Assembly: GCA_964560175.1 (NCBI GenBank)
Contig: CAZLKQ010000001.1
Span: 1-48,749 of the forward strand
Direction: 5' to 3'
Length of the DNA: 48,749 bases
Origin: an uncultured Candidatus Saccharibacteria bacterium
Lineage (GTDB): Bacteria; Patescibacteriota; Saccharimonadia; Saccharimonadales; CAZLKQ01
In this document: in pieces, positions 31,783 to 47,104 of the stretch
How the letters are laid out: each line of letters starts with the position of its first letter
Numbering within the stretch: the stretch's first letter is position 1
Program-made: the position numbers and the translations under genes
Notes under the pieces: generated by a model
Seen by the model: only the letters and a program-made list of their open reading frames with translations
The model's database searches: none
Told to the model about the DNA's origin: nothing

Positions 31783-31796
31783 CATATCTGTTAGAT

Positions 31797-31878
31797 TAAG
31801 TTCTAAAGTTCATAAAGTTTTTAAAGTTCGTAAAGGCGAACTGACTTTTAACTTTCAACCTTATAAACTTTTAACTAG
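31797..31878. repeat. Palindromic element with 9-nt TAAAGTTCN repeats and complementary AACTTT arm
   Basis: taaagttca taaagtttt taaagttcg taaagg ... ttttaac tttcaac cttataaac ttttaac; followed by ctagcAAATCGGAGATTT and the rpsL GTG. Confidence 0.75.
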
Positions 31879-31895
31879 CAAATCGGAGATTTGTA

Positions 31896-32309
31896 GTGCC
31901 TACAATTAACCAATTAGTCCGAAATCCGCGCAAGAGCGCCAAGGCTAAATCGAAATCTCGGGCTCTACATAGCACCTATAATGCTCTGAAGATTCGCACC
32001 TATGAGAAAAATTCACCGCTGAAGCGTGGTGTTTGTATCAAAGTCACCACCAAGACACCAAAGAAACCAAACTCAGCGCTACGCAAAGTCGCCCGTGTCC
32101 GTTTGACCAATGGCCAAGAAGTCTGGGCCTATATCGGCGGCGAAGGCCACAATCTCCAAGAGCACGCAGTGGTTTTGATCCGAGGCGGTCGAGTACCAGA
32201 TCTGCCTGGAGTTCGTTACCATATTGTTCGAGGATCATTGGATCTCCAAGGCGTTCAAAATCGCAAAAACGGCCGCTCTAAATACGGCGCAAAAAAGGCC
32301 AGCAAATAA
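31896..32309 (+). CDS. rpsL: 30S ribosomal protein S12
   Basis: PTINQLVR...; [15 protein letters not shown]; GTG start. Confidence 0.96.
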
Positions 32310-32542
32310 TGGGCGAGGCAATGTGTCCAATGTTTGCAGACTGTAAGGCACAAAGTATCTCGAGAGAATACAGAGTGGGTTTAAACTCAGAAATGCCGCT
32401 TGGCATCAAGTATGTGATTACAGATATATGTAGGCTGGCAATTGAAAAACGGACGCAAAGCTGTCCAATTGTAAATATGAGTACAGAAGAGGAAATCCTT
32501 CTCCTACAAAAACGCGCAAATGGAGATTATAATGCCGCGTAA
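32309..32542 (+). CDS. 77-aa Cys-containing orphan ORF filling the rpsL-rpsG spacer
   Basis: TAATG overlap with the rpsL stop; 11-nt overlap with the rpsG start; 4 Cys (CPMFADC ... C ... SCP). Confidence 0.5.
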   Translation: MGEAMCPMFADCKAQSISREYRVGLNSEMPLGIKYVITDICRLAIEKRTQSCPIVNMSTEEEILLLQKRANGDYNAA

Positions 32543-33017
32543 AGTTACCAAATCGCTAAGACGAAATATTGCTCCAGATCGGATTTACGACTCTATCCTA
32601 GTACAGAAATTGATCAATAAAGTCATGCTGGCCGGAAAGAAAACTTTGGCAGAAAAATTAGTCTATTCTGCCATGGTAAAAGCTGCAGCTAATCTCAAAT
32701 CTGACAAACCGCTAGAAGTACTAGAAACCGCTATCAAAAATATCCGACCGCAACTGGAAGTGAAATCTCGCCGGATCGGTGGAGCAAACTACCAGATTCC
32801 TTTTGAAATCAAAGGCGAACGCCAAACCCATAAAGCTTTAATGTGGTTTATTGCTGCTGCCCGAGACCGCCGTAAATCAATGGGCAAGGACTTTGATGAA
32901 GCTCTAGCCGCTGAAATTGTCGATGCTTTCAATGAAACCGGCTCAGCTGTCAAGAAAAAAGAAGACACACATAAGATGGCTGAAGCGAATCGCGCCTTCG
33001 CCCACTTCGCTAGGTAA
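32532..33017 (+). CDS. rpsG: 30S ribosomal protein S7
   Basis: MPRKVTKS...; GGANYQIP; GGAG SD; start trimmed from ORF-track 32520. Confidence 0.95.
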   Translation: MPRKVTKSLRRNIAPDRIYDSILVQKLINKVMLAGKKTLAEKLVYSAMVKAAANLKSDKPLEVLETAIKNIRPQLEVKSRRIGGANYQIPFEIKGERQTHKALMWFIAAARDRRKSMGKDFDEALAAEIVDAFNETGSAVKKKEDTHKMAEANRAFAHFAR

Positions 33018-33022
33018 TTAAG

Positions 33023-33394
33023 ATGTCGGAAATGACTAGTGCTCTTCCCTGCAGTGATTGCCCTCGAAAGGCCAACCGTTTTGTAATCCGCACTTCAGGA
33101 ATAATATTAGAGGAACAAGGTGGAGTTATGTACGGCTATGTAAAACCTGACCGAAGGTCTCTTGTAATGGGTAGAATAAGCACCGCAGACTTAGAAGCGA
33201 ATTACCAAGATTTGGCTGCTTCTATCTATTTATGTGAAAGCCCAGTTACAATAACGCAACCAAAAGCCGGCCTACTGGGGCGGGTGGGCTTTAAGCGGGA
33301 GGTATTGGCATGCCCCGCGTTAAGGGAAGCAGTGGTAGAGAGAACTATTGCACGTATTGAAGAAATTAATAATCCTGAGGCGGGACATGACTGA
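33023..33394 (+). CDS. Orphan ORF A (123 aa) with PCxxCP motif
   Basis: LPCSDCPRKANRFVIR...; same strand, 5 nt after the rpsG stop. Confidence 0.55.
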   Translation: MSEMTSALPCSDCPRKANRFVIRTSGIILEEQGGVMYGYVKPDRRSLVMGRISTADLEANYQDLAASIYLCESPVTITQPKAGLLGRVGFKREVLACPALREAVVERTIARIEEINNPEAGHD

Positions 33395-33638
33395 GCTACT
33401 TAAAACTTTTGAATTTCCAGAAGCATGCGTTGGAAGTTGCCCCCAGATCGGCAGGTGGTTAAGCACCGTGGAACACTCAGATCCAGAAAGCTGGCGATAT
33501 ATAGAAGCAGTGAGTAAACTTAAAGGCTTGTCAGACATAGCCTGCGCTACTCAGTGTGGAGGACCGTGGGATGACCAAACAGAAATGGCCCCAGTCCTCT
33601 ATTGTTCAGGTAATCCAGGAAGTGATTACGGAGTTTAA
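33387..33638 (+). CDS. Orphan ORF B (83 aa), Cys-rich
   Basis: ATGACTGA overlap with ORF A; CVGSCP and CATQCGGP motifs. Confidence 0.5.
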   Translation: MTELLKTFEFPEACVGSCPQIGRWLSTVEHSDPESWRYIEAVSKLKGLSDIACATQCGGPWDDQTEMAPVLYCSGNPGSDYGV

Positions 33639-33639
33639 A

Positions 33640-34161
33640 ATGGCTGAGACACAAGAAATCGCCGTTGCCAGACCGCATATACCTTATACGGATGTTCCAG
33701 AATTAATAAAATGGCCATGCGAAAATTGCCCCAATAGGGTTAGTGTGACGGCTCGTATCAAGAGTGATTCTTTGCAAATTATGGACGGAGAATTGCAGAT
33801 TGAGGGAGTATGGGTGCCAGAAAATATTGATCCTCTGTCGCAACGAAAAGTAATTCTGGTCCAGTTAGGAAAGAAAGTAGCGGACTTATATGCTGAGGGA
33901 TGCACAGGTTCTCGTATCGAGGAAGATTGGTCACCGAATCATCGAGTCAGGCTGGATTACAACAGATGCAAATCCGAGTCGAGTGACGTACTCGAAAGAC
34001 TTGGTCGAGCCATGACCCCTGGCTGGGCTGGTTATTACGCTTTTGGGATGGGACTTATTAGGGAACAGATTTATACCGAGCCAGAACTTGCTATGTTAGC
34101 AGCGGAAAAAGCCAAATCCAAAGAAGAAGAGCGCCGAAGGCGAATGCGGGGACCTTACTAA
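33640..34161 (+). CDS. Orphan ORF C (173 aa) with PCxxCP motif and basic C-terminus
   Basis: GGAG SD, start AAATGGCTGAG; WPCENCPNRVSV resembles ORF A; its stop directly abuts the fusA ATG. Confidence 0.55.
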   Translation: MAETQEIAVARPHIPYTDVPELIKWPCENCPNRVSVTARIKSDSLQIMDGELQIEGVWVPENIDPLSQRKVILVQLGKKVADLYAEGCTGSRIEEDWSPNHRVRLDYNRCKSESSDVLERLGRAMTPGWAGYYAFGMGLIREQIYTEPELAMLAAEKAKSKEEERRRRMRGPY

Positions 34162-36231
34162 ATGGCTAAGACTCCGCTGGATAAAATCAGAAACATTGGG
34201 ATTATCGCGCATATCGATGCTGGTAAAACCACTACGACCGAAGCTGTTTTATACCGAACCGGACTAAAGCACAAGATCGGTGCTGTACACGAAGGTGAAA
34301 CTACTACTGACTGGATGGAGCAGGAACGCGAGCGTGGCATCACCATTACCTCGGCTGCTGTCACTTGTTTTTGGAAAGATCACCAGATCAATATCATCGA
34401 CACACCTGGCCATATCGACTTTACCGTCGAAGTCGAGAGATCTTTGCGCGTACTCGATGGCGCCATGACGGTTTTCGACGGGAAAATGGGAGTCGAGAGC
34501 CAGTCTGAAACAGTTTGGCGACAAGCCGACAAATACGGCGTGCCGCGAATCTGTTTTATCAACAAGATCAACCAAACCGGCGGTGATTTCTATAAATCCC
34601 TTGAGTCCATCCATACGCGTCTGACCAAACACGCTTACCCGATCCACCTGCCGATCGGCTTTGAGCAGTCAATCAATGGTGTCATCGACCTGATCGACAT
34701 GAAAGCCTACACCTACAAGGACTTCACTGACAAAGAATTGGTCGTCGGCGAAATACCCGAAGACATGAAAGAAAAGGCCGCCAAATACCGCTCTCATCTG
34801 GTCGAGGCTGCTCTGGGTGCCGATGACGACCTACTGATGAAATACTTGGACGGCACCGAAATCACCAATGAAGAGCTCAAATCTTGCATCCGCAAATCGA
34901 CGATCAAAGGTGACTTTTTCATCGTCTCGGGCGGCGATGGCCGGGGTGTGATCGTCGAGAAACTGCTCGATCTAATTGTTGACTATCTGCCAAATCCGCT
35001 GGAAGCCGGCTCAGTCTTTGGCACTCATCCCAAAACAGGTGATGAACTGGAGCGCAAACCCGATGTCAATGAACCGTTTTCCGCTCTGGCATTCAAGATC
35101 GCCACTGACCCCTTTGTCGGCAAACTGGCCTTTTTCAGAGTTTATTCCGGCTCGATGAAAGCCGGCAGTTACATCATGAATGCGGCAACCGGTGACAAAG
35201 AACGGGTCGGCCGGATCTTGCGCATGCACGCCAACGACCGGACCGATGTCGAGACGATCGAAGCCGGCGATATCGCCGCCGCGGTTGGCCTCAAAGGCAC
35301 AACTACCGGCAATACATTGTGCGACCCTGCTAACCCAATAATTTTAGAGTCGATCGACTTCCCAGACCCACCAGTTTCGATTGCGATAGAGCCCAAAACC
35401 AAGGCTGACCAAGAAAAAATGTCGATTGCCCTGCAGCGCCTAGCCGAGGAAGATCCGACTTTCCGAGTCCACAGCGACCACGAAACCGGCCAGACTATCA
35501 TTTCTGGCATGGGCGAGCTGCACCTGGAGATCATTGTCGATCGAATGAAAAGAGAATTCAAAGTCGAAGGTAGTGTAGGCCAACCACAAGTCGCTTACCG
35601 GGAGACCATTAAAGTTCAGACTGAGATAGAGGGTAAATATATCAAGCAAACTGGCGGTCGCGGCCAATATGGCCATGTCGTACTCCGGCTCGAGCCGCAA
35701 GAAGCCGGAGTAGGCTTCGAATTTGTCGATGCCATCAAGGGTGGTGTCGTGCCACAAGAGTACCGAAGCGCTGTCAAAAAAGGTATCGAAGATGCCATGG
35801 CAAATGGCGTCATTGCCGGCTACCCAGTAGTTGATGTCAAAGTAACTTTGACTGACGGCTCGTACCACGAAGTCGACTCCTCCGAGCTAGCCTTCACAAT
35901 GGCCGCTAGCCAAGCTTTACAAGCCGGAGTCAAAAAGGCTAACCCAGTACTACTGGAGCCGGTAATGAAAGTCGAAGTAGTGACTCCTGAGGAATTTATG
36001 GGTGACGTCATCGGCGACCTGAACGGCCGTCGCGGCCGGATCGAAGAAATGGAAGACCGGGCCGGCGTCAAAGTCGTCCACGCTTTCGTGCCACTTGGTG
36101 AAATGTTTGGCTACACCAATGATATCCGTTCGATGAGTCAAGGCCGAGCCAGCTCAACAATGGAGCTTGACCATTACGGCGAAGTACCGAATAATGTGGC
36201 CGAAGAAATCATTGCAAAACAAACTAAGTAG
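34162..36231 (+). CDS. fusA: Elongation factor G
   Basis: [14 protein letters not shown], NKxD; 689 aa. Confidence 0.97.
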
Positions 36232-36248
36232 TCATATTTTAGGTATAG

Positions 36249-36578
36249 ATGTCAAAAGATGTAGAAATTGAAGATAGGGCACAAGGCTACATCGATGCCT
36301 GTGCTTTCCTTGATCTAGAATATGCTAACTGTGACATAGTCGCTCAGGAATTTCGGGAAGTTTATGAGCGACGTAGTGTAGAACTGCTCGGCGCTTTTCA
36401 TGTGGACACGCTGAGAGTTACCACAAAAATGGGTGCCCAAATCCTACATACTACAGGGGTATTAGTGTCGATGGGTCCATCAATAGTGCATAGGCGTAAT
36501 AAATTTAGGCAAGTTATCGATGATGAGTCAGCCGGCCTGGCTGAAGCAGAAGAAATAATTGCCAAAAAAGGCAAATAA
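36249..36578 (+). CDS. Orphan ORF D (109 aa), apparently derived from the fusA 3' end
   Basis: C-terminus AEEIIAKKGK* versus [13 protein letters not shown]; N-terminus VEIEDRAQG..CAFLDLE versus [20 protein letters not shown]. Confidence 0.5.
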   Translation: MSKDVEIEDRAQGYIDACAFLDLEYANCDIVAQEFREVYERRSVELLGAFHVDTLRVTTKMGAQILHTTGVLVSMGPSIVHRRNKFRQVIDDESAGLAEAEEIIAKKGK

Positions 36579-36579
36579 A

Positions 36580-37125
36580 ATGATAAGAGGATCTCTTTAC
36601 GAATCAACTTCCTATCCTGTATTGGATTTGTTGGTCGGAGTTGAGAGTAATCCTGCCGCCGATACACTTTTGGCCCAGATCGAGACCGCGGCTGCAGTAG
36701 ATGTAAAGCTAAGACTAGACTACAACGCTACGCTGCCAAAACTCAACTTGGCGGGCGTTATTGACTTAATCGCTATGGGCGACGAAAGCCGGCTGAAAAA
36801 ATACGCACAACTAAAATTACTCCACGATGCCGTATCAACTCCTGAAGATTTAGCTTCAAAGAATGATTCTGTTGTCACCGAGTTGGAGTTGGCGGTGTCT
36901 GGCTTGCAGCAACGCAAAGGGGAGAGTCGAAGAGTGCGCCTTTTGCATAAACGAGCAGCAAAAACTCTCGACTATTACCAGAAGCACATGAGACGGCGCC
37001 CGTTTTCTACGCCCAATCTACTTACACTGCTTGATAGAGATTCAGAGATGTTTCTAGGGGCAGTTAATTTTATTGGCGAGTTGTCGTTGGTTGAAAGGAA
37101 AATAACAAAATCATTTTCGCCTTAA
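36580..37125 (+). CDS. Orphan ORF E (181 aa)
   Basis: ATG 1 nt after the ORF D stop; no family recognised. Confidence 0.5.
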   Translation: MIRGSLYESTSYPVLDLLVGVESNPAADTLLAQIETAAAVDVKLRLDYNATLPKLNLAGVIDLIAMGDESRLKKYAQLKLLHDAVSTPEDLASKNDSVVTELELAVSGLQQRKGESRRVRLLHKRAAKTLDYYQKHMRRRPFSTPNLLTLLDRDSEMFLGAVNFIGELSLVERKITKSFSP

Positions 37126-37130
37126 CAGGG

Positions 37131-37159
37131 TTTACAACTGGGCTCAACCCCTGTACAAT
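37131..37159 (+). promoter_or_regulatory. Candidate promoter for tuf
   Basis: TTTACA, 17-nt spacer, TACAAT; AGGAGA SD lies before ATG 37237. Confidence 0.55.
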
Positions 37160-37236
37160 GCGTAACATAAATGAGGCATGTATTTGATTGCCTCGAAAAA
37201 GTTAAATAATAGTAGTAACAATCAGGAGAACAGTTA

Positions 37237-38421
37237 ATGGCAAATTTTGATCGCAGCAAACCACATGTAAACGTCGGTACCATGGGACACGTCGACCACG
37301 GCAAAACCACCCTGACTGCCGCTATTACGCACACCCTGAGCAAGCGATTGCCATCAGATATCAACAAACCGATCAATTTTGACCAGATCGACAACGCGCC
37401 CGAGGAAAAAGAACGCGGCATCACGATTGCTGTTTCACATCTGGAATATGAGTCTGAGAAGCGCCACTACGCCCACGTCGACATGCCCGGTCATGCCGAC
37501 TATATAAAGAATATGATCACAGGTGCCGCCCAGATTGATGGCGCCATTCTGGTTGTCTCAGCTGCTGACGGCCCAATGCCACAGACCCGTGAACATGTCC
37601 TACTGGCCCGCCAAGTCGGTGTGCCCTCGATCGTTGTCTTTCTAAACAAAATGGACATGGCTGATCCAGAACTAGTGGAGCTCGTCGAAGCCGATGTCCA
37701 GGAACTATTGACCAAGTACGAGTATGACGGTGACAAAACTCCGATTATCAAAGGTTCCGCCAAGAAAGCTCTCGAAGGCGATGAGAAGGAAATGGACAAC
37801 ATCATGGAGCTGGTCAAGGCTATCGATGAGCACATTCCTGAGCCAAAGCGTGATCTAGACAAACCATTCCTGATGGCCATCGAAGACGTTTTCTCGATCA
37901 AAGGCCGGGGCACCGTCGCTACAGGACGTGTCGAGCAAGGTATCGTCAAAGTCAATGAAACGGTCGAAATCGTCGGGATTCGTGATACTAAGAAATCAGT
38001 AGTTACCGGTGTTGAGATGTTTCGAAAAAACCTCGATCAAGGCCAGGCTGGCGACAATGTCGGTATTTTGCTACGGGGAATTGAAAAAGAAGATATCGAG
38101 CGCGGCCAAGTTTTGGCAAAACCCGGCACTATCACTCCACACACCGAATTTGACGCTGAAGTCTACATCCTGACAAAGGAAGAGGGCGGTCGTCACACGC
38201 CGTTTTTCAAAGGCTACAAGCCACAATTTTACTTCCGCACCACTGATGTGACTGGTGAAGTTGAGCTACCGGCTGATACAGAAATGGTCATGCCAGGTGA
38301 CACCATTACCTTCAAGGTCAAATTGATCCAAGCTATCGCTATGGACCAAGGCCAACGTTTTGCTATCCGCGAAGGCGGCAAGACCGTCGGCGCTGGCGTC
38401 GTAACGAAAATTAACAAATAA
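37237..38421 (+). CDS. tuf: Elongation factor Tu
   Basis: [18 protein letters not shown]; 394 aa. Confidence 0.97.
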
Positions 38422-38428
38422 TTTTCGA

Positions 38429-38458
38429 GTAATTAGTAACTAGGAATTAGCAATTAGT
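38429..38458. repeat. One-armed heptamer array GNAAYTA x4
   Basis: gtaatta gtaacta ggaatta gcaatta; near-identical to the array at 9735-9770 (gtaatta gtagcta ggaatta ggaaata). Confidence 0.7.
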
Positions 38459-38743
38459 ATGACAGAAACTTCACGACAACAGACCCCAGAAGAAATGACT
38501 CGATCAAGAATTGCTCTTTACCGTCATGCTGCTGCTGGTGGATACGATGTTCATCAATGGGGTACCAAGGAAGGCGAGATATATCATGAAGTTTTTGCGC
38601 AATCCGGTGATGAAATCCCAGATGCAAATTTTACTTATCTAGAGCCAATTTTGGAGCATGAAATAGTATATCTTGGCTCGTTGACTCCCAAAGGAGCAAA
38701 AGAGATTGCTGATCAATTGGAGGAGATTTTACTAAATGGCTGA
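38459..38743 (+). CDS. Orphan ORF F (94 aa)
   Basis: No family recognised; its stop lies inside a copy of the rpsJ start sequence. Confidence 0.5.
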   Translation: MTETSRQQTPEEMTRSRIALYRHAAAGGYDVHQWGTKEGEIYHEVFAQSGDEIPDANFTYLEPILEHEIVYLGSLTPKGAKEIADQLEEILLNG

Positions 38744-38755
38744 GGAAGTAAAATC

Positions 38756-39037
38756 ATGAGTTTGACGACAACTGATTTTCAAGAAATTCGAACTATTGTT
38801 CGTGAGGAAGTTGAAAGCATTGTAGAAGCGAAATTGAATCCACTCAGAAATGAGCTACAGGCTCTTCGTAATGATATAAAAGAAATTTACAACAGGCTGG
38901 TTAAACTCGAATCGCCTGTATTTACAAATAAGGAATTTAATAAATTACCACTAGAGAAAAGACTTCTGACATTAAATTCTGATTTGTTGGCGATGGCTAA
39001 AGAAATTGGTTTATCACTTCCAAGGAACACAAATTAA
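38756..39037 (+). CDS. Orphan ORF G (93 aa), coiled coil, paralog of ORF 7565
   Basis: MSLTTTDFQEIRTIVREEVES versus MNLTNDDLKSIKKVVSDSIDE. Preceded by the 7-codon remnant MAEEVKS*, coupled through an ATGA overlap. Confidence 0.55.
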   Translation: MSLTTTDFQEIRTIVREEVESIVEAKLNPLRNELQALRNDIKEIYNRLVKLESPVFTNKEFNKLPLEKRLLTLNSDLLAMAKEIGLSLPRNTN

Positions 39038-39391
39038 ATGGCTGAGGAAATTCGCGTACAACAGATGGATGAGCCACAGGATTGGGTGAAGAAACTGCGT
39101 GGAGCTGACAAGTTAGCATACGATGAGGTTCGCGAGGAGAGTATCGGAGAAATAGCAGAGGTTTACAAACAGCGGCTAAAAGAATTTGTTGATGAAATTA
39201 CTGAGATTGGAGCGGAGGAAGCCATCGCTCATAGAGCAACAAGGCTAGCAACTAATACCAGAGACTCTTTTGAAGCCGGCATCCAAGTTGGCATGGACAG
39301 CGAACGTGAGTATCGGCAACAACTGGCTCGTAGAGAAAGAGAAGAGCATGCCTCCTTTCAGAGAAATGTCATCGGAAATTGGGCTGGCTGA
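39038..39391 (+). CDS. Orphan ORF H (117 aa), acidic, helical
   Basis: Starts with ATGGCTGAGGAA, identical to the rpsJ start; TGATG overlap with rpsJ. Confidence 0.55.
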
Positions 39392-39729
39392 TGGCTGAGG
39401 AAACTGCAAAAGTAGTTCCAGCTGGCGTACCAAGGATCAGGATTCGACTGAAGGCTTATGATCACAAAGTGATCGACCTGTCGGCCAAGCAAATTATCGA
39501 TACTGCGGAGCGCACTGGTGCTACAGTGGCCGGACCGATTCCGTTGCCAACCAAGCGGAGTGTATACACGGTTATCAAGAGTCCTCATGTCTATAAAAAG
39601 GCTCGTGAGCAATTCGAAATGCGCGTACACAAACGACTGATTGATATCAGTAATCCGACTCCAAAAACCATCGATTCTCTCCAGAATCTGTCTCTACCTG
39701 CCGGCTGCGACGCCGAAATCAAAATGTAG
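39391..39729 (+). CDS. rpsJ: 30S ribosomal protein S10
   Basis: [21 protein letters not shown]...GPIPLPT; start trimmed to MAEE. Confidence 0.93.
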
Positions 39730-39878
39730 TGGCAATAACTCCCTTTTGTGACAGGTGCGGCGAGGAACTAAAGAAATTTGGGGCAATCCTGTTTAGCCCG
39801 CCAAATGCTAAAAGTGTTGTCAAAAAACTACATGTATGCGTTGATTGCTATAAAGAAATAGTTAAAACTTTCAAATAG
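39729..39878 (+). CDS. 49-aa zinc-ribbon micro-protein
   Basis: GTG start overlapping the rpsJ TAG (TAGTG); [13 protein letters not shown]...VCVDCYKE has two CxxC pairs; below the ORF-track cutoff. Confidence 0.45.
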
Positions 39879-39958
39879 GTATTGCTCATGCTTGCAAATC
39901 GGGTAAGTATATACCAAGCTAATCGAATGAATGAAAAAAAAGGTTAAAGTAGTAATTT

Positions 39959-40336
39959 ATGACCGCTGAACATAATATTAACCAAGCGCAGCTATATTAT
40001 GAAATACGTGAGCAATTTACAGAAATGCGCGAATCATTTTCAGCTGAGCGGACAGCATACTTAGAACTATTACTCTCCTTGGAAGGTGTTCCCGTAAGTG
40101 CTTCGTATAGGTTTCGGTATGTCAAAGAACCCGGGGAGTTTGGTCGCGGTGGACATCTAACAGACTTATTACAACCTGTTGATAGGCAAGCTGTGAAAGT
40201 AGTCATCTCGGAAGTAGGTGAATCAAATTTAGGTGTGCGTATAGTAAGAGAAAACGGATCACCAAATAATTTTGTTGAGATTGTTGCTTTTGACGACTTT
40301 GAATTGTTAGAGATAAGTAGCAACAACGCAAACTAA
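39959..40336 (+). CDS. Orphan ORF J (125 aa)
   Basis: No family recognised; AT-rich; flanked by the 16-nt repeat GTATTGCTCATGCTTG. Confidence 0.5.
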   Translation: MTAEHNINQAQLYYEIREQFTEMRESFSAERTAYLELLLSLEGVPVSASYRFRYVKEPGEFGRGGHLTDLLQPVDRQAVKVVISEVGESNLGVRIVRENGSPNNFVEIVAFDDFELLEISSNNAN

Positions 40337-40472
40337 TCGCAAAAGTATTGCTCATGCTTGTCACATATTGACAGTGATATAATTTTGGTATGAATCCCGT
40401 TAGAACTAAGTATTTTATCGAAGACAAAACCTGCCGCTTTTTAATTAGCGTAAAAAACGGAGTTCTAACGGG

Positions 40473-40739
40473 ATGAATAACGTATCTTTGTCCTTACCAT
40501 TTCTCATTCAAGGCGATAGCCCACAGCACAAGGCCATGAGGCGTCATCAGTTGTATGATTTACTCGAAAAAGACAATGAACTGCTAGCGGATATTCTCGA
40601 CCTTCAACGCAAGCTGGCTAAGAAAAAAGATAAGGAGTCTCGCGAATTAGTTGACGAGCTCGGTGAAATCGTTCAGGAATTTCTCGGTCTGAATCGTCAA
40701 AAATTAGAACTTACCAAGGCCATCAATAAAGATACCTAA
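40473..40739 (+). CDS. Orphan ORF K (88 aa), coiled coil
   Basis: Its start is sequestered in a perfect 14-bp inverted repeat and coupled (ATGA) to a 28-codon uORF at 40390-40476. Confidence 0.5.
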   Translation: MNNVSLSLPFLIQGDSPQHKAMRRHQLYDLLEKDNELLADILDLQRKLAKKKDKESRELVDELGEIVQEFLGLNRQKLELTKAINKDT

Positions 40740-40741
40740 TT

Positions 40742-41053
40742 ATGCCCACGATACCTAAACGTCAATTTGACGAGGTGGGCAACGAATTAGCTGGTTTACA
40801 ATCGGAAACCATAGAGAGTAAATCAGCAGATACGCCGATAGTCGAACAGACCAGAGATGTTATAGCGCGTACGGTGGTGCAAACTTTCTTTTTGCTGCTA
40901 GGTGTAATTCTGATCGGCGTGCCGGTCTACAATGCCAATGTAGCCAGCGATCTCCGACTTGATCTACCTGATCTGCTGCAACAATATTCAGCGATTTTGG
41001 GCCCTGTGCTAGGCTTTGTCATCGGCTACTATTTCAAGAGCAAAAATGACTAA
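40742..41053 (+). CDS. Orphan ORF L (103 aa), two TM helices
   Basis: VVQTFFLLLGVILIGVPVY and ILGPVLGFVIGYYF. Confidence 0.5.
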   Translation: MPTIPKRQFDEVGNELAGLQSETIESKSADTPIVEQTRDVIARTVVQTFFLLLGVILIGVPVYNANVASDLRLDLPDLLQQYSAILGPVLGFVIGYYFKSKND

Positions 41054-41486
41054 TCTCGAAGGCTGCAAATTTTGTGATCCTAAAAGTGAAGATCTAAGAC
41101 CACGCTTAATTAATCTCGGCAGCTGGTGTTATTCAGCTTTATCCAATCCTCGCATAACTCGCGGACATGCTCTGGTGATTCCGAACCGACACGTTGAGGA
41201 CCCAACTGAAGTTGATGAAAGAGATTTTATATACATACAAAGAGAGATCATAAAATTACAGAGGAAAATTCTGCTCGAAATTGCTCCGGGTGTTGATGTT
41301 TGGCAAAAATATCAGCCGTTTGTCGAGGAAGGGCACGCAGGAACAAAAATGAACCATGTTCATTATCACGTGATTCCCAGAAATCCTGCCGACGGTTTAC
41401 TGATGTCACCCGAACCAGGAACCGATACATTCTCGCCGCTTTGCGAAGAAGAGCGTATCGACATGCTCGAAATTTTGGGACCATAA
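41046..41486 (+). CDS. HIT (histidine triad) family protein
   Basis: HVHYHVIPR triad; ATGACTAA overlap with ORF L; start trimmed from 41016. Confidence 0.78.
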   Translation: MTNLEGCKFCDPKSEDLRPRLINLGSWCYSALSNPRITRGHALVIPNRHVEDPTEVDERDFIYIQREIIKLQRKILLEIAPGVDVWQKYQPFVEEGHAGTKMNHVHYHVIPRNPADGLLMSPEPGTDTFSPLCEEERIDMLEILGP

Positions 41487-41511
41487 AATCTGTATCTGCT
41501 AAAATACGCTT

Positions 41512-41766
41512 ATGACTAACCGTAAGCGTGAATCAAACAGTGTCTATTTTCTGAAAATTGTCTTTTTCTTCGTGATTGGCACCATTTGGATTCGCTTTGG
41601 GGCCGATTCCAGAACTGGAGGAGGTATTCCAATTGGTTTGCTGTTGGGGATTATTTTTGCCAATCACGACCACTTCCAAATCGACCAAAAAATTGAATTT
41701 GCGATCCTGCTGATTGCTGCCATCCTAAGCTTTGTTTTCCCTATCGGCGCAGTCATAGTCGTCTAA
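41512..41766 (+). CDS. Orphan ORF N (84 aa), membrane protein
   Basis: Three hydrophobic segments; start ATGACTAAC echoes the HIT gene start ATGACTAAT. Confidence 0.5.
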   Translation: MTNRKRESNSVYFLKIVFFFVIGTIWIRFGADSRTGGGIPIGLLLGIIFANHDHFQIDQKIEFAILLIAAILSFVFPIGAVIVV

Positions 41767-41841
41767 TCTGCCTGTCCCGCAACTTTTCCTGAGTGTAGTA
41801 ATAAGCAATCTGATTATGAAATCTCAAGAAACGGTGCGGGA

Positions 41842-41871
41842 TTGACACATCTGTTGTACATCTGGTAGTAT
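41842..41871 (+). promoter_or_regulatory. Candidate extended -10 promoter for rplC and the downstream S10-operon genes
   Basis: TTGACA, 18-nt spacer, TGgTAGTAT; about 150-nt structured leader follows. Confidence 0.5.
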
Positions 41872-42024
41872 TTAATCAATTGCACTCGGCTGCGTTTATT
41901 TGGATTGCGGCAAGAGACTGGTCTGTAAGTTCTACGATAAATCAGGACCAAAGATCCTGAGCGAAGTCGAAGGATACTGCAAATCAGCCTCCAGTGCAGT
42001 TTGACTTAAAATTAGGAGATAGAC

Positions 42025-42648
42025 ATCAAAGCTATCATTGGCACCAAGATCGGTATGACCCAGATCCTGACAGAGGATGGTACGGCTGTGCCTGTAACCT
42101 TGGTCCATGCCGAGCCAAACGTCGTTACCCAGAACAAAACAGATGAAGCCAATGGCTACAACGCCGTCCAGCTAGGCGCCGGCCGAGCCAAAAGACCCGC
42201 CAAACCCCAAGAGGGACATGCCAAGAAAGCCGGTCTAGACTTTACCCCGCGGATTATGCGCGAGGTACGCGACCTCGAGTTTGACCCCGAAACTATAAAA
42301 CCCGGAGCCAAAGTCGAAGTCACGAACTTTGAAGTCGGCGACGAAGTCGATGTCACGGGAACTAGCAAAGGTAAAGGCTTCGCCGGAACCGTCAAACGTC
42401 ATAATTTTCTAACCAGCCCAAAATCTCACGGCGGTAAAGGCTATATCCGAAAACCTGGCTCGATCGGCTCTATGTATCCGCAAAAAGTCATGAAGGGCAA
42501 ACGAATGGCCGGCCGCATGGGCTTTGATAAAACTACCATCGTCGATCTCAAAGTCGTGCTAGTAGACGCCGAAAATAATTTACTCGGTATTAGAGGCGCC
42601 TTGCCTGGGCCGCGCAAAGGCACAGTCATAGTGCGAGGTTCTAAATAA
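42025..42648 (+). CDS. rplC: 50S ribosomal protein L3, probable non-AUG (ATC) start
   Basis: The conserved N-terminus (I)[13 protein letters not shown] is in frame upstream of the first ATG (42055); AGGAG SD lies 6 nt before ATC 42025; in-frame TAG at 42013. Confidence 0.88.
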
Positions 42649-43301
42649 TGTCCGTTATAACTTTCTCAGCAACTGGTACAAAATCAACAACTGTGGCTAA
42701 ACTGCCAAAAGATATTTTTGACCAAAAAATCGAATCACATGATCTGCTGCACCAAGTTTTTGTAGCTCAACACGCTGCCCTACGCTCCAATTCTGCCAAA
42801 ACCTTGGATCGCGGTGAAGTCCGCGGCGGTGGCAAGAAGCCCTGGAAGCAAAAGGGCACCGGCCGGGCACGACACGGCTCGATCCGCAGCCCAATCTGGC
42901 GCGGCGGCGGTGTGACTTTCGGCCCTTCAACTGACCGAAATTACACCAAAAAAGTTACTACGGCAGCCAAGCAAAAAGCTTTGCGCCAAGTCCTGACGCT
43001 CTGCGCCAAGGACGGCAGCCTGTCGATCATCAAGTCCTTCGTCTCCAAAGACGGCAAAACGGCACCAATGGAGTCGTTGCTAAAAAAACTAAACTTGGCT
43101 CGACCGCTAGTGGTTGTTATTGAAAAGCGCGACGACGTAACTGTCCAGGCAACTCGCAACCTTAAGGACCTGGATCTGGTGACGGCTAGCTACCTGAATG
43201 TCTATCGACTAGCCAATGCCCGACACATTTTGCTGACTGAAGGGGCAATCGCTGTGATTGAGGCCGGCCCAAAACAGACTAAACCGGAGACCAAAGAATG
43301 A
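42648..43301 (+). CDS. rplD: 50S ribosomal protein L4
   Basis: [29 protein letters not shown]. Confidence 0.95.
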
Positions 43302-43603
43302 ATACGCCGCTAGTTATCCAGCCACTCATCAGCGAAAAGAGCTTTATTCAGGCTGAAAAAGGCGTCTATACCTTCAAAGTTCCTCTCACAGCTAACAAAC
43401 AAACGATCGCCAAGACGATTGCTGCTGATTACAAGGTGACAGTTGAAGCTGTTAGAACGGTATTGTCTAAGGGCAAAGCCAAGCGGATCGTCCGCAAACG
43501 CCAACAGCCTAGCGTTGGCCATCGCTCAGATTTTAAAAAAGCTTACGCTACGCTCAAAAAAGGCGATAAAATTGCGGTCTTTGCCGAAGGAGCTGAGTCA
43601 TGA
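43298..43603 (+). CDS. rplW: 50S ribosomal protein L23
   Basis: ISEKS...YTFKV; ATGA overlaps on both sides. Confidence 0.92.
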
Positions 43604-44436
43604 GTATAAAAGTCTTCAAACCAACCACTCCCGGACAGCGCGGCATGACAACCCGTGATTTTAGCGAGATCACCAGCAAAAAACCTGGCGCCCGCTCTTT
43701 ACTCAAGATCAAAAAAATTACATCGGGCCGCAATAATCAAGGCCGGATAACCACTAGGCATCGCGGCGGCGGGGCCAAACGTTTTTATCGATTGGTCAAT
43801 CACAAGTTAGCCTCTGGCATCTCGGCTACTATTGAGCAGATCGAATACGATCCAAACCGTTCGGCCAATATCGCTTTGCTGCGCGAAAAAGGCGGCAAAC
43901 CGCACTACATTTTGGCAGCCGATGGTATGAAGCCCGGCCAAGTCGTGAGTTCCGGTGCTGACGCAGCTATCGAAAATGGCAATCGATTGCCTATACACGC
44001 GATTCCACTGGGCAGTTCAATATATGGCATCGAGCTGCAACCGGGCCGCGGGGCTCAGATGGTTCGAAGTGCTGGCGCCCGAGCCCAGCTAATGGCCCGT
44101 GAAGGCGAACTTGCCCAGATCAAATTACCTAGCGGCGAAGTTCGCAAGGTCAGCATCAATTGTATGGCCAGTATTGGATCGGTCGGCAACGCCCAGCACC
44201 AAAACGTCAAGATCGGCAAAGCTGGCCGCAAACGTCATATGGGCATCCGGCCATCAGTTCGTGGTAAGGCCATGAACCCTGTTGACCACCCGATGGGCGG
44301 CGGCGAAGGCCAAACCGGCCCGGGCCGCAACCCAAAGACGCCTTGGGGCAAAATAGCTATTGGACTCAAGACTCGCAGACGGAAATATACTCAGAAAATG
44401 ATCGTCAAGACTCGGGCAGAAAGCAAGAGGCGCTAA
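43600..44436 (+). CDS. rplB: 50S ribosomal protein L2
   Basis: KPTTPGQRG...; HRGGG; VRGKAMNPVDHPMGGGEG. Confidence 0.97.
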   Translation: MSIKVFKPTTPGQRGMTTRDFSEITSKKPGARSLLKIKKITSGRNNQGRITTRHRGGGAKRFYRLVNHKLASGISATIEQIEYDPNRSANIALLREKGGKPHYILAADGMKPGQVVSSGADAAIENGNRLPIHAIPLGSSIYGIELQPGRGAQMVRSAGARAQLMAREGELAQIKLPSGEVRKVSINCMASIGSVGNAQHQNVKIGKAGRKRHMGIRPSVRGKAMNPVDHPMGGGEGQTGPGRNPKTPWGKIAIGLKTRRRKYTQKMIVKTRAESKRR

Positions 44437-44442
44437 GATGCA

Positions 44443-44524
44443 GCAACTAGCAACTAGCAACTGGCAACTAGGAAAAAAATTCGATCAAAGAGTCCTAATT
44501 GCTAATTGCCAAATCCAAATTGCC
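44443..44524. repeat. Palindromic heptamer element: (GCAACTR)x4 left arm, (GCYAATT-like)x4 right arm
   Basis: gcaacta gcaacta gcaactg gcaacta gg ... cctaatt gctaatt gccaaat ccaaatt gcc; lies between rplB and rpsS. Confidence 0.8.
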
Positions 44525-44541
44525 ACAAACGGAGGCTTGTT

Positions 44542-44829
44542 ATGAGCCGCAGCCTCAAAAAAGGACCATTTCTGGATCCAAAACTAATGAAGAAAATCGA
44601 AAACAGCGGTGACTCTAGAGCGCCTATCAAGACTTGGGCGCGAGCTAGCTCGATCTCCCCGGAGATGGTCGGCAAAACTATCGCTGTTCACAACGGCCGG
44701 GTACACGTGCCGGTATTGATTTCCGAAAATATGGTCGGGCACAAGCTCGGCGAATTCGCGCCAACCCGCAAGTTCCGTGTCCACGGCGGCAAATTAGCTA
44801 AAGGCCAGGGTAGTGGGGAATCATCATGA
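44542..44829 (+). CDS. rpsS: 30S ribosomal protein S19
   Basis: [10 protein letters not shown]...; GGAGG SD; start trimmed from 44506, which lies in the repeat arm. Confidence 0.95.
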
Positions 44830-45230
44830 AAGTCCAAGCTTTGTCTAAAAATCTGCGAATTTCGCCGCGAAAAATTGGTTTGGTTGCAGGTCTAGTCAGA
44901 GGCCGCAGTGTCGACGACGCTTTGGTTATCCTCCAACATACTCCTAAAAAAGCCGCGCCAATGCTGGCTAAAATAATCTCCAGTGCTTCAGCTAATGCCC
45001 GGTACAAGCATTCATCGGCTAGTAGTGATTTAACTATCGAAGTTTTAGATGTTGGCTATGGTGTGCGAATGCGCCGCTATTTCGCGGCAGCCCACGGCAG
45101 AGCCAGGAAATTTCAAAAACTCAGCAGCAATGTCCGAGTCGTACTAGACGTAGCCGACAAGAAAGCTACTAAAAGTAGTGAGAAGTCTGTAGTCGGTAGT
45201 GAGAAAAAGAATAAAGAGACAAAGTCATGA
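44826..45230 (+). CDS. rplV: 50S ribosomal protein L22 with Lys/Ser-rich C-terminal tail
   Basis: [16 protein letters not shown] core; the tail [21 protein letters not shown] is partly encoded by GTAGT heptamer repeats. Confidence 0.93.
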
Positions 45231-45237
45231 TTCAGTT

Positions 45238-45321
45238 TGTAAAGTTCATAAAGTTAAAAGTTCATAAAGTTATGTTCACTCAGAGGTCACCTTCTACTTT
45301 ATACCTTCTACTTTCTACTAG
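45238..45321. repeat. Palindromic element of the TAAAGTTCA family
   Basis: gtaaagttca taaagtt aaaagttca taaagtt ... ccttctacttt ataccttctacttt ctactag; followed by ctagaAAATCGGAGATTT and the rpsC ATG. Confidence 0.75.
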
Positions 45322-45339
45322 AAAATCGGAGATTTTCTG

Positions 45340-45975
45340 ATGGGACAGAAGGTCAATCCAATTAGTTTCCGCTTAATCGACAGCAAAGATTGGCGTTCTA
45401 AATGGTTTGCCGGTGGCAAGCAGTATGTGGATTTTCTGCTCGAAGATCTCAAGATCCGCAAGTTGATCGATGACACACTGACCCGCCGAGCCAGTATCCA
45501 AAAAGTCGACATTGAACGAACCGCGAATCAAATAACCATAACTATCCATTCCGCAAAAGCCGGTGTGGTCATCGGTCGTGGCGGCGCTGGAGTAACTCAA
45601 CTGAAGAATCAAATTCAAAATATTGTCGGACGAGCAGTCCGGCTAAACATCGAAGAGGTCAAAAAGCCTGAGCTGTTCGCCAGAATTGTGGCTGAAAATA
45701 TCGCCCACCAATTGGAAAAACGCATTTCGTTCCGCCGTGCCATGAAAGCCTCGGCTGCCGCCACCATGCGCGTCGGGGCCAAGGGCGTCAGAATCCAATT
45801 GGCCGGCAGGCTAAATAACGCCGATATGGCTAGACGCGAAAAAGAAATTCAGGGATCAGTGCCACTCCACACCATCCGGGCCGACATCGACTACGCTTTG
45901 GCCGTCGCCAAAACCAGTGCCGGCACCATCGGCGTCAAGGTCTGGATATATAAAGGCGAGAAGTTCGAGGAATAA
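45340..45975 (+). CDS. rpsC: 30S ribosomal protein S3
   Basis: MGQKVNPISFRL; KH domain GRGGAGV. Confidence 0.95.
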   Translation: MGQKVNPISFRLIDSKDWRSKWFAGGKQYVDFLLEDLKIRKLIDDTLTRRASIQKVDIERTANQITITIHSAKAGVVIGRGGAGVTQLKNQIQNIVGRAVRLNIEEVKKPELFARIVAENIAHQLEKRISFRRAMKASAAATMRVGAKGVRIQLAGRLNNADMARREKEIQGSVPLHTIRADIDYALAVAKTSAGTIGVKVWIYKGEKFEE

Positions 45976-45980
45976 TATGA

Positions 45981-46073
45981 GTTATAAAGTCCATAAAGTT
46001 ATAAAGTCCATAAAGTCTAGCTTAAGATTAGGGTTTCAAGCTTGCAACTTTCAACTTGCAACTTTCAACTTGA
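45981..46073. repeat. Palindromic element: (ATAAAGTYC)x4 left arm, (GCAACTT TCAACTT)x2 right arm
   Basis: ataaagtcc ataaagtt ataaagtcc ataaagtc ... gcaactt tcaactt gcaactt tcaactt. Confidence 0.8.
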
Positions 46074-46092
46074 GCCACCACTGGGGGCGAGC

Positions 46093-46518: not shown

Positions 46519-46712
46519 AAGCTTTAGAATTTAGAAAAAAGACCGAAGTCGAAGTGTCCAAACAGTTGAGCACTTTGAAAGCGAAAATCGCTGACCTGGT
46601 ACGTGATGCTTCGACAGCAGAGAAAAGAAATGTCCGGGAAATTAGAGCTATCCGAAAAGACATCGCTCGTGCCTTGACTGTTTTACACGAAAAGCAAAAG
46701 GAGGCCAAATAA
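46515..46712 (+). CDS. rpmC: 50S ribosomal protein L29
   Basis: 65 aa, helical, in the conserved position; ATGA overlap with rplP. Confidence 0.9.
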
Positions 46713-47094: not shown

Positions 47095-47104
47095 CTTCAT
47101 CACT

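Follow-up and report, generated by a model that had tools for sequence, protein, structure and literature searches.

Three spacers in the window, i.e. the whole 48,749-nucleotide stretch of Saccharibacteria DNA analysed here, are best explained as unannotated copies, each of ca. 110 bases, of a repeat cassette of ca. 105–140 nt that was inserted or duplicated between presumably co-transcribed Saccharibacteria genes; we put the probability of this reading at roughly 0.6. With the same confidence we propose that the cassettes are tolerated because translational coupling is relayed across them, in a manner which resembles that proposed for mycobacterial interspersed repetitive units (MIRUs) although the elements are built differently. 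Such a cassette consists of a left array of 7–9-nt units, a right array of units with a complementary core, a 3′ module carrying a GGAG-type Shine-Dalgarno (SD) sequence in a mini-hairpin of 5–7 bp and a single open reading frame (mini-ORF) running through the whole. The three spacers, termed E1 (rpoC|rpsL), E2 (rplV|rpsC) and E3 (rpsC|rplP), contain the following features.

31783–31895, + strand: E1 spacer, between the rpoC stop (31780–31782) and the rpsL GTG (31896)
31772–31909, + strand: E1 mini-ORF, 45 codons, shuffle P 0.039
31804–31836, + strand: E1 left array, TAAAGTTCA TAAAGTTTT TAAAGTTCG TAAAGG
31843–31878, + strand: E1 right array, GACTTTT AACTTTC AACCTTA TAAACTTTT AACTAG
31879–31893, + strand: E1 SD module, mini-hairpin CAAATC-GGA-GATTTG
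45231–45339, + strand: E2 insertion, between the rplV stop (45228–45230) and the rpsC ATG (45340)
45227–45340, + strand: E2 mini-ORF, 37 codons, shuffle P 0.022
45240–45272, + strand: E2 left array, TAAAGTTCA units of 9/8/8(9) nt
45288–45321, + strand: E2 right array, CACCTTC TACTTTA TACCTTC TACTTTC TACTAG
45321–45337, + strand: E2 SD module, mini-hairpin GAAAATC-GGA-GATTTTC, GGAG at 45328–45331
45976–46092, + strand: E3 insertion, between the rpsC stop (45973–45975) and the rplP ATG (46093)
45977–46099, + strand: E3 mini-ORF, 40 codons, shuffle P 0.035
45984–46018, + strand: E3 left array, ATAAAGTCC ATAAAGTT ATAAAGTCC ATAAAGTCT
46034–46072, + strand: E3 right array, TTTCAAG CTTGCAA CTTTCAA CTTGCAA CTTTCAA CTTG

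Architecture of the three spacers

Tandem 8–9-nt units are present in all three spacers, as an earlier note on this DNA had maintained for the left arms. Arrays of a TAAAGTYNN 9-mer are common to E1, E2 and E3, with the unit TAAAGTTCA in E1 and E2 and the units ATAAAGTCC/ATAAAGTT in E3. If up to 3 mismatches are allowed, the window contains 9 matches to the 16-mer TAAAGTTCATAAAGTT compared to an expectation of 0.39, and 8 of the 9 lie inside E1–E3. The right arms share an ACTTT/ACCTT core but not the AACTTT heptamers originally described, as is evident from the E2 units CACCTTC, TACTTTA, TACCTTC and TACTTTC. Since the period is 9 on the left and 7 on the right, the postulated palindrome is limited to a core of 5–6 nt per unit.

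The window contains only two copies of the 3′ flank CTAGNAAATCGGAGATTT (31875–31892 and 45318–45335), both without mismatch, against an expectation of 0.16 even if 3 mismatches are allowed; they are followed by the genes named previously, those of the ribosomal proteins S12 (rpsL, GTG 31896) and S3 (rpsC, ATG 45340). The flank does not represent the generic SD context of the genome, the objection raised with the original claim, because only 2 of the 59 gene starts in the window, those behind E1 and E2, carry it. E1 and E2 align over their full length, comprising the left array, the right array ending in ACTAG and the SD module, and therefore a unit including the SD sequence was duplicated; this unit is, however, a complete mini-cistron and not a non-coding hairpin plus ribosome binding site. 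Related SD modules, AAWCGGAGGTTTCA and GCGACCRAAGGGAGC, are found 3′ of array elements in other Saccharibacteria genomes. The GGAG motif of E1 (31885–31888) lies 7 nt 5′ of the rpsL GTG, and the right array of E3 is followed by a GGGGG SD sequence at 46083–46087. Over the 30 nt 5′ of element-coupled starts the median folding energy is −5.8 kcal/mol, compared to −2.6 kcal/mol in 103 control SD windows (p = 5e-6).

The mini-ORFs of E1–E3 (37–45 codons) extend from the stop of the upstream to the start of the downstream gene. In E2, the ATG and the rplV stop overlap (ATGA), as do the TGA and the rpsC ATG (TGATG). In E3, whose limits follow from ATG 46093 being the true rplP start, the mini-ORF begins 1 nt past the rpsC stop and runs to 6 nt beyond the rplP ATG, its TGA overlapping an in-frame second ATG at 46099 (TGATG). 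The geometry of E1 is the loosest of the three: its ATG precedes the end of the rpoC stop by 10 nt, and its TAA ends 13 nt beyond the rpsL GTG. The E1 left array is read as K-V-H-K-V-F-K-V-R-K-G; an 8-nt unit in the E2 left array shifts the codon phase within the array. The same 9-mer is read in two codon phases inside E2, and likewise inside E3, and hence the DNA rather than the peptide is conserved.

Bridging reading frames and insertion at operon junctions

Bridging ORFs are not confined to E1–E3. They are present in all seven spacers that measure 100 nt or more within the rpoC–rpsL plus S10/spc region, with individual shuffle P values of 0.006–0.10 and a product of about 1e-11; after reverse complementation of the spacer core none of the seven is bridged. 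GAGG or AGGA is located 4–13 nt 5′ of 6/7 mini-ORF starts, within the upstream gene. The further elements of the window are given below; one-arm heptamer arrays also occur in it, e.g. at 38431–38457.

5823–5918, + strand: CCATT/CCGTT-family element outside the ribosomal operon; 3/3 sense frames open, a TTG-started ORF ends 1 nt before the next gene
44437–44541, + strand: element of the same kind with AGCAACT/TAATTGC units, at the rplB|rpsS junction (actual rpsS start, ATG 44542)
44438–44545, + strand: rplB|rpsS mini-ORF, 35 codons, with an ATGA overlap at its end
46712–46822, + strand: rpmC|rpsQ bridging mini-ORF, 36 codons, TGATG at the start and TAATG at the end; hairpin present, arrays absent; the only mini-ORF with an existing protein call in public data
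47091–47237, + strand: CCATT-family array hairpin, rpsQ|rplN, bridged by a mini-ORF of 48 codons (ATGA at either end), SD module CGACCAGAGGGAGC
48578–48721, + strand: AATTTTC/GAAAATT array hairpin, rplE|rpsN, bridged by a mini-ORF of 47 codons that starts with GTG and ends in TGATG, SD module GCGACTGAAGGGAGC

Across Saccharibacteria loci, the gene strand is open in 26 of 29 two-arm elements and the antisense strand in 5 of 29, and in the majority of them the ORF ends exactly at the next start codon. A set picked by Tandem Repeats Finder alone gave a corresponding result (21/22 open on the gene strand versus 6/22 antisense). TAAAGT-type array hairpins of other CPR metagenome contigs, located in part between tRNA genes, served as a non-coding control, and most of them have no open frame.

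The junctions now occupied had been considered tight in typical operons, which applies to rplV|rpsC and rpsC|rplP (−1 to +10 nt in relatives) but not to rpoC|rpsL (54–232 nt). In the closest relatives (S3 77–80% identical), the L22|S3 gap is −1 (TAATG) and the S3|L16 gap 3–10 nt; in most of 80 GTDB Saccharibacteria loci the L22|S3 gap is −1 to +1. These gaps identify E2 and E3 as insertions. Of the three elements, E1 has the weakest case. Its first ca. 15 nt (ATCTGTTAGA) recur in the 54-nt rpoC|rpsL spacer of the relative L204, and other relatives possess a conserved spacer of 110–232 nt. Because the spacer of the relatives contains a conserved TGTTATACT-like box, which could be a promoter −10 element, E1 may lie in a 5′ UTR and the start of its ORF outside the transcript.

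Sequence comparison further indicates that families are shared across genomes and junctions. The right half of the rplE|rpsN element of the window is homologous to the rplX|rplE element of genome L074 (ca. 85% identity over ca. 50 nt), i.e. at a non-orthologous junction, and two further CCATT-family copies are found on another contig of equal read depth. The set of occupied junctions varies from genome to genome, reaching nearly every ribosomal-protein junction in L074, and array families are widespread in CPR metagenomes. The elements showed no consistent target-site duplication or terminal repeat, and no transposase or recombinase gene was identified for them. The sequencing runs containing the present sequence are exclusively DNA runs from a permafrost metagenome.

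Proposed translational relay and alternative explanations

On the basis of this geometry we propose the following scenario. The mini-ORF start would occupy the former start-codon site of the downstream gene, overlapping or abutting the upstream stop, and would be served by the old SD sequence inside the 3′ end of the upstream gene; the mini-ORF stop would coincide with the new start codon of the displaced gene (TAATG, TGATG or ATGA). Ribosomes ending the upstream gene would re-initiate at the mini-ORF and translate through the arrays, their passage blocking array folding and keeping the RNA covered. They would then melt the SD mini-hairpin, terminate at the next start codon and re-initiate there. 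Ribosomes can probably be handed across the insertion in this way, so that the ribosomal-protein operon would retain its translational coupling and stoichiometry. The peptide is probably a by-product, although a recurrent N-terminal M-x-R-F-x-x-H-Q-like motif leaves room for selection acting on it. The cassette is best regarded as repeat DNA that is tolerated, selfish or neutral and has been made translationally transparent, following a logic as proposed for MIRUs.

Alternatively, the spacers might be non-coding regulatory stem-loops with a ribosome binding site, whose arrays fold in the mRNA and tune stability, processing or initiation, the open frames being incidental. Consistent with this idea, other families in the window fold significantly (CCATT element 47095–47233, z −3.2 sense and −6.6 antisense; element 1440–1574, z −3.5 and −4.4), the SD sequence sits within a local hairpin and non-coding TAAAGT hairpins exist in the CPR contigs mentioned above. 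However, the arms of E1–E3 as sense RNA fold no better than shuffled sequences (z −1.7, −0.1 and −0.5, respectively), so that a translation-modulating stem-loop appears unlikely for E2 and E3, where the large hairpin is predicted to be thermodynamically insignificant in the mRNA. Moreover, the bridging ORFs are far too regular for chance, neither + strand terminator-like sites within E1–E3 nor an Rfam match for the elements were found, and the variable choice of junctions is contrary to a gene-specific regulator. We therefore regard this explanation as unlikely.

Rather improbable is also a primarily DNA-level element, in which the inverted arrays form single-strand hairpins of the template (bottom) strand, serve as recombinase/transposase substrates or bind proteins, and the open frame is a secondary constraint; it overlaps in part with the preferred explanation. 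The antisense strand gives the better fold in 18 elements out of 29 (Wilcoxon p = 0.014); the difference is marked in the window, where it applies to most elements, and A·C mismatches of the sense strand turn into G·U pairs on the antisense strand. The occurrence of families at different junctions of several genomes and widely in CPR metagenomes would suit such an element. Yet this strand asymmetry is missing in several genomes, E1–E3 are not significantly structured on either strand with DNA folding parameters, and neither a recombinase or transposase gene nor a consistent target duplication was found. The proposed relay would account for the better antisense folding only indirectly, by a weakened mRNA structure.

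Least probable are genuine micro-protein genes with 35–48-residue products of their own function, e.g. ribosome-associated, and repeats encoding low-complexity peptides: the frame is kept in nearly all copies, indels between the L003 paralogues are multiples of 3, the N-terminal motif is found in each of L003, L014 and L083, encoded by synonymously differing codons, and one mini-ORF has a protein call, but repeat units are translated in two phases inside E2 and inside E3, the frame in which homologous rpoC|rpsL DNA is read differs between the window and L204, the peptides differ wholly between families of constant architecture and end modules, and the C-terminal 'motifs' ATEGS and DQRE merely encode the SD sequence.

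Relation to known repeat systems

According to a 2025 J Bacteriol review (PMC12548453), MIRUs insert at start codons with a coupled ORF (Supply et al. 1997) and are read as mobile DNA with minimal effect on expression. As described there, they resemble the present elements as short repeats between operon genes, oriented with the genes, that contain a small ORF with its stop coupled to the downstream start, i.e. the same start/stop geometry. They belong to another phylum, with no sequence relationship to the present elements shown, and are head-to-tail units of 40–100 bp with an overlap of −4, whereas the elements here are single units of two inverted arrays of 7–9-nt sub-repeats, bring their own SD sequence in a mini-hairpin, overlap mostly by −1 (TAATG/TGATG) and in one genome, L074, fill nearly all of the ribosomal-protein junctions. 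Rickettsia palindromic elements (RPEs), like further ORF-compatible MITEs (intragenic ERIC, BOX), are palindromic repeats of ca. 100–150 bp in translated sequence which survive by being stop-free in the host frame (PMC10969869), a property shared here. RPEs, however, fuse in frame to the host protein, and the cassettes form a separate mini-cistron with its own start, SD sequence and stop.

The STRR sequences of cyanobacteria are tandem heptamer arrays. Comparable are the TAACTGA repeats of Beggiatoaceae, Cyanobacteria and Bacteroidetes (MacGregor 2015, PMC4679880) and, as far as cited therein, the long simple sequence repeats of Mrazek 2007. The likeness consists of short arrays (2–6 copies) of 7-nt units in intergenic regions, with sites within ribosomal-protein operons and directly 5′ of start codons. 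In the published arrays, however, a single heptamer is directly repeated, and a paired complementary array, a bridging ORF and an SD module are lacking, whereas one architecture accommodates many different unit sequences here. REP/BIME and classical MITE elements (Correia, RUP, ERIC) likewise occur in multiple copies between cistrons, are imperfectly palindromic and share a transcript with the flanking genes, the last being presumably the case here too; the present elements differ by lacking a family consensus across copies, terminal inverted repeats and a consistent TA or other target duplication, by having internally tandem-repetitive arms and by being open reading frames. Finally, short 'delivery' ORFs and bicistronic designs, in which termination-reinitiation or RNA unfolding couples translation, take the form of 5′ leaders or of engineered devices, whereas the short ORF described here would itself be coupled to a gene upstream of it and resides on a repeat.

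Repeat arrays and bridging frames in the long spacers

The elements are embedded in the following arrangement of RNA polymerase and ribosomal-protein genes.

Genes of the locus
24452-27979, rpoB
27976-31782, rpoC
31896-32309, rpsL, start codon GTG
3' of rpsL, in this order: rpsG, fusA, tuf and rpsJ
42055-48581, rplC through rplE
48721, start of rpsN

An earlier note had described three spacers, E1 (rpoC/rpsL), E2 (rplV/rpsC) and E3 (rpsC/rplP), as palindromes at normally tight junctions, the first two travelling with a conserved ribosome-binding module. The repeats are present in all three and were resolved by Tandem Repeats Finder into arrays; those of the elements comprise 3-5 units. Each spacer is moreover traversed by a mini-ORF, a small frame from the stop of the upstream to the start of the downstream gene.

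Spacers, arrays and mini-ORFs
31783-31895, + strand, spacer E1; period-9 array at 31798-31835
E1 mini-ORF, + strand: ATGATG at 31772, 10 nt before the end of the rpoC stop; 45 codons; TAA 13 nt inside rpsL
45231-45339, + strand, spacer E2; period-9 array at 45240-45271, period-7 array at 45292-45319
E2 mini-ORF, + strand: ATG at 45227 on the rplV stop (ATGA); 37 open codons; TGA on the rpsC ATG (TGATG)
45976-46092, + strand, spacer E3; period-9 array at 45984-46017, period-7 array at 46034-46071
E3 mini-ORF, + strand: ATG at 45977, 1 nt past the rpsC stop; 40 codons; TGA on the second in-frame rplP ATG (TGATG), 6 nt after the ATG at 46093

The 16-mer of left-array units, TAAAGTTCATAAAGTT, is matched nine times in the window with up to 3 mismatches (0.39 expected), and eight of the nine matches fall inside E1-E3. 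The flank CTAGNAAATCGGAGATTT occurs exactly twice in the window, once in E1 and once in E2. That it might simply be a generic Shine-Dalgarno (SD) context, the objection raised in the note itself, is excluded by its position before only 2 of 59 gene starts and its absence from the other 57. The proposal that hairpin and SD were copied as a unit agrees with the alignment, in which E1 and E2 match end to end. Other parts of the description need adjustment. The right arms said to be of AACTTT type consist in E2 of CACCTTC and TACTTTA units and have only an ACTTT/ACCTT core in common; the arms of the supposed palindromes differ in period (9 versus 7), and only 5-6 nt per unit are able to pair. Tight junctions are the rule for rplV/rpsC and rpsC/rplP, but not for rpoC/rpsL, where the spacer measures 54 nt in the relative L204 and 110-232 nt, with conserved sequence, in L208-L213. 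Further copies of the E family were not found at the depth of the genome in the source run.

The other long spacers, rplB/rpsS, rpmC/rpsQ, rpsQ/rplN and rplE/rpsN, are also bridged by mini-ORFs, and their repeat units are different (AGCAACT, none, CCATTNN and AATTTTC, respectively). Bridging is thus found at 7/7 long spacers, with P values of 0.006-0.097 for each in spacer shuffles and a product of about 1e-11; after reverse-complementing the spacer core none of the seven bridges. The mini-ORFs have their own start and stop and use a frame unlike that of either neighbouring gene. GAGG or AGGA precedes six of the seven mini-ORF starts within the upstream gene's 3' end, where relatives hold the SD of the downstream gene, which is now displaced. 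E1-E3 and four further elements of the window all lie between + strand genes and in gene orientation. Across several Saccharibacteria loci, 26 of 29 two-arm elements are open throughout on the gene strand versus 5 of 29 on the other strand, and a set defined by Tandem Repeats Finder only gave 21/22 versus 6/22. In about 16 of the 29 the stop shares a single base with the start that follows (TAATG, TGATG, TAGTG), and ATGA is found in several others. We infer that the mini-ORFs are translated. A census of mini-ORFs with this relay geometry counted 207 in 1.46 Mb, a number contaminated by genuine small ribosomal proteins and used for per-locus lists only.

The gene order around the elements has further peculiarities. 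Many unmatched small ORFs are interleaved between rpsG, fusA, tuf, rpsJ and rplC (33023-34161, 36249-37125, 38459-39391 and 39959-41766), and a HIT-domain protein (41016-41486) is among the ORFs interrupting the usual str/S10 order. The rpsL/rpsG gap is filled by a 77-codon ORF (32309-32542) without a Pfam match, whose start lies on the rpsL stop (TAATG) and whose end overlaps rpsG over 23 nt; the L204 gap measures 234 nt (3415-3648) and has its own open frame, and in most other relatives rpsL and rpsG overlap. The rplB/rpsS (L2/S19) gap is 260-350 nt long in about 15 Saccharibacteria loci (L002-L081), and that of L082 carries a 99-codon ORF without a family match. A 229-residue ORF on the high-G+C metagenome contig L207 (643-1332), corresponding to about one and a half tandem S12 copies, may have arisen by gene fusion or by chimeric assembly and is unrelated to the repeat cassettes.

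The Shine-Dalgarno module and predicted folding

The flank singled out as conserved in the earlier note is part of a 3' module that recurs among the elements and whose SD lies within a small hairpin formed locally.

SD mini-hairpins (stem-loop-stem)
E1: CAAATC-GGA-GATTTG
E2: GAAAATC-GGA-GATTTTC
L003: AAACC-GGA-GGTTT
L082: GCCTCC-GAA-GGAGGC
L074: GCTCC-TGAAA-GGAGC

The 30-nt windows 5' of element-coupled starts have a predicted median fold of -5.8 kcal/mol, compared with -2.6 kcal/mol for 103 other SD-bearing starts of the same loci (p = 5e-6). A masked SD that is opened by the arriving ribosome corresponds to the classical RNA-unfolding mode of translational coupling (PMC12548453).

A stable mRNA hairpin formed by the arms of E1-E3 finds no support in the sense-RNA folding z-scores of -1.7, -0.1 and -0.5, respectively, against dinucleotide shuffles, and with DNA folding parameters the arms likewise perform no better than the shuffles. 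In most window elements the antisense strand folds better, and A.C mismatches of the sense strand become G.U pairs in the antisense strand; the element at 47095-47233 reaches -34.0 kcal/mol on the + and -55.1 kcal/mol on the - strand. Over 29 elements of several genomes this bias is real but modest (18/29, p = 0.014), and it may reflect either selection weakening mRNA structure or a role at the DNA level. Within E1-E3 no terminator-like site (G+C-rich stem plus U tract) was detected on the + strand, and promoter or terminator consensus sequences in the elements did not rise above chance. In the whole window the Rfam gathering score was reached only by two tRNAs, and a search of 44400-48749 with E up to 1 gave no match.

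Insertion and conservation of the elements, and signs of their spread

Among 185,579 GTDB species genomes the best S3 relative of the source genome, a Candidatus Saccharibacteria member (Saccharimonadales), is 72% identical; S3 relatives at 77-80% identity are present in public protein data. The L22/S3 distance lies between -1 and +1 in almost all of the 80 GTDB relatives, and the four closest ones have -1 at L22/S3 and 3-10 nt at S3/L16, the empty sites reading ...AAGGAGAAGAAATAATGGG... and ...GAGGAATAAGCCATGTTGATGCC..., respectively. By these comparisons, E2 and E3 are insertions. Both are missing from the best S3 relatives (77-80% identity), and close relatives have no orthologous copies for dN/dS. 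The terminal inverted repeats and fixed-length target-site duplication of a MITE are not present; comparison with the empty sites gave inconsistent duplications, namely TGAT at E2, ATG at E3 and none at E1. The TAATG at both ends of elements in L074 and L003 is explained equally well by selection. A search for a candidate copying enzyme was negative. Public runs containing the window sequence were DNA runs of one permafrost metagenome only, with no transcript run among them, and contigs of the source run yielded assembly breaks and paralogous copies instead of empty-site alleles. The short-read assembly of this sample (Logan contigs) is interrupted at 45039-45048 and 47135-47153, near or inside repeat elements, and a Logan contig of 2.9 kb and equal depth carries two copies resembling 47088-47224.

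E1 is the weakest case because of its loose geometry (-10, +13), its P of 0.039 and a candidate -10 box. Directly 3' of the rpoC stop a conserved box, CTGTTA(G/T)A(C/T)T, is found in all relatives examined (L204, L208-L213) and at 31789-31797 of the window, reading TGTTATACT in the relatives and TGTTAGATT in the window. It has the look of an extended -10 (TGnTAnnnT), possibly the promoter of the str operon, in which case E1 would sit in the rpsL 5' UTR. The motif ATCTGTTAGA 3' of rpoC has one reading frame in the window and another in L204, yet both spacers are bridged. A suggestive, albeit ambiguous, alignment relates the SD region of E1 to the leader native to rpsL in L204 (CGGAG-TTT, ATCTGTTAGA).

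Conservation of the elements is at the DNA and not at the peptide level. An 8-nt unit shifts the codon phase inside E2 and inside E3, such that TAAAGTY is read as (x)TA-AAG-TTx and then AAA-GTT-CAT, or in reverse order. Peptides of different families are unrelated except for their C-termini, which simply encode the SD. L003 has four similar copies, and indels between its paralogues are of 3 and 6 nt only.

The Saccharibacteria loci with array-hairpin elements, a minority, are L074, L003, L014, L048, L059, L082 and L083; in L074 nearly every ribosomal-protein junction is occupied. In its right half and SD module, the rplE/rpsN element of the window is about 85% identical to an element of L074, whose S3 is 65% identical to that of the window and which carries the matching element at a different junction, rplX/rplE. 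A contig other than that of the window, at equal read depth in the source run, holds two CCATT-family copies. In the window, this family of CCATT/CCGTT ... AATGG/AACGG heptamer-array hairpins has at least four copies (1440-1574, 5823-5918, 24139-24260 and 47095-47233); the one at 24139-24260, in the 313-nt spacer before rpoB, is closed in all frames of both strands, and the one at 1440-1574, among - strand genes, has a sense frame open over 1461-1572 and no start codon. Two one-arm arrays at 38422-38458 and 9729-9775 (AATTAGN x4; GGAATTAG-like) are without a complementary partner; one extends to -1 of an ATG that opens a 94-codon ORF 3' of tuf, with no SD, and the other directly precedes a tRNA gene.

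Arrays of the 9-mer TAAAGTYNN are widespread, with at least 120 metagenome contigs matched by 15-mer (L084-L203). Among these 120 listed matches, 67 have at least three chained copies and 17 a complementary right arm as well; the majority are incompatible with an ORF. The TAAAGT-type array hairpins of these other metagenome contigs serve as a natural control and are, among the matches listed, mostly closed in all frames. Such hairpins are located between tRNA genes in L092 and L182, and arrays lie just 5' of start codons in L138, L180 and L185; one of the control contigs, L161, encodes Paceibacterota-like proteins.

Proposed translational relay and comparison with known repeat systems

In the reading we favour, the elements are repeat cassettes that are tolerated and keep translational coupling by being translated. 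The ribosome of the upstream gene would re-initiate at the old start site, translate through the arrays, open the SD hairpin and terminate on the start now used. Which junctions are occupied varies from genome to genome, and this speaks against a role in regulating particular genes. A considerably more far-reaching proposal, which we regard as rather unlikely, is that Saccharibacteria, perhaps CPR bacteria generally, host self-spreading array-hairpin elements of a class not described before, whose single architecture, inverted arrays of 7-9-mers, would be generated repeatedly with different units. Within operons, such elements would have turned into autonomous cassettes for translational relay (start on stop, open frame, masked SD, stop on start) able to colonise even every ribosomal-protein junction, and the strand-biased G.U pairs would reflect movement or copying as template-strand single-strand hairpins by some enzyme.

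It is assumed that few loci in biology are as compact and constrained as the ribosomal-protein operons of CPR bacteria, whose genomes are tiny and streamlined. Those described here tolerate repeats of 100-140 nt at many junctions, in one relative at nearly all, seemingly because every repeat in itself relays translational coupling. If true, the MIRU principle would gain a second, independent example, and there would be a natural test bed for the termination-reinitiation versus the RNA-unfolding model of coupling. The finding also points to dozens of unannotated mini-ORFs per genome, missed or mis-assigned by gene callers, and before an "intergenic" hairpin of a metagenome-assembled genome is called a regulatory RNA, a bridging frame should be looked for. 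Short-read assemblies are broken by the repeats at these sites.

Our literature searches turned up no account of such elements, be it from Saccharibacteria or from other CPR bacteria. REP/BIME sequences are imperfect palindromes of 20-40 nt with a family consensus, extragenic and untranslated, whereas the present elements span 105-140 nt, have arms composed of tandem arrays of varying units and contain open reading frames. Rickettsia palindromic elements are inserted in-frame and fuse into the host protein, unlike the mini-ORFs described here. TAACTGA/STRR-type arrays consist of direct copies of one heptamer and are intergenic, often just upstream of a start codon. The elements here likewise contain arrays, with 3-5 units each, but the left units of E1-E3 are 9-mers, and the arrays are paired with a complementary array and located inside an ORF. 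The one-arm arrays at 38422-38458 and 9729-9775 resemble the published TAACTGA-type arrays before start codons, and an array of the published type is present at 38431-38457. The closest likeness is to the MIRUs (Supply et al. 1997), with which E1-E3 and the four further window elements share the position between co-oriented operon genes, the gene orientation and an internal small ORF coupled at both ends, tightly in E2 and E3 and more loosely in E1. However, the present elements occur one per junction, only their 7-9-nt sub-units being in tandem, and show no head-to-tail VNTR behaviour; they are inverted arrays of 7-9-mers with their own masked SD. Given phylum and composition, sequence similarity to the mycobacterial MIRU consensus is unlikely. 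Due to this different build, with inverted arrays, an own masked SD and no head-to-tail units, we consider the elements to work like MIRUs without being members of the family.
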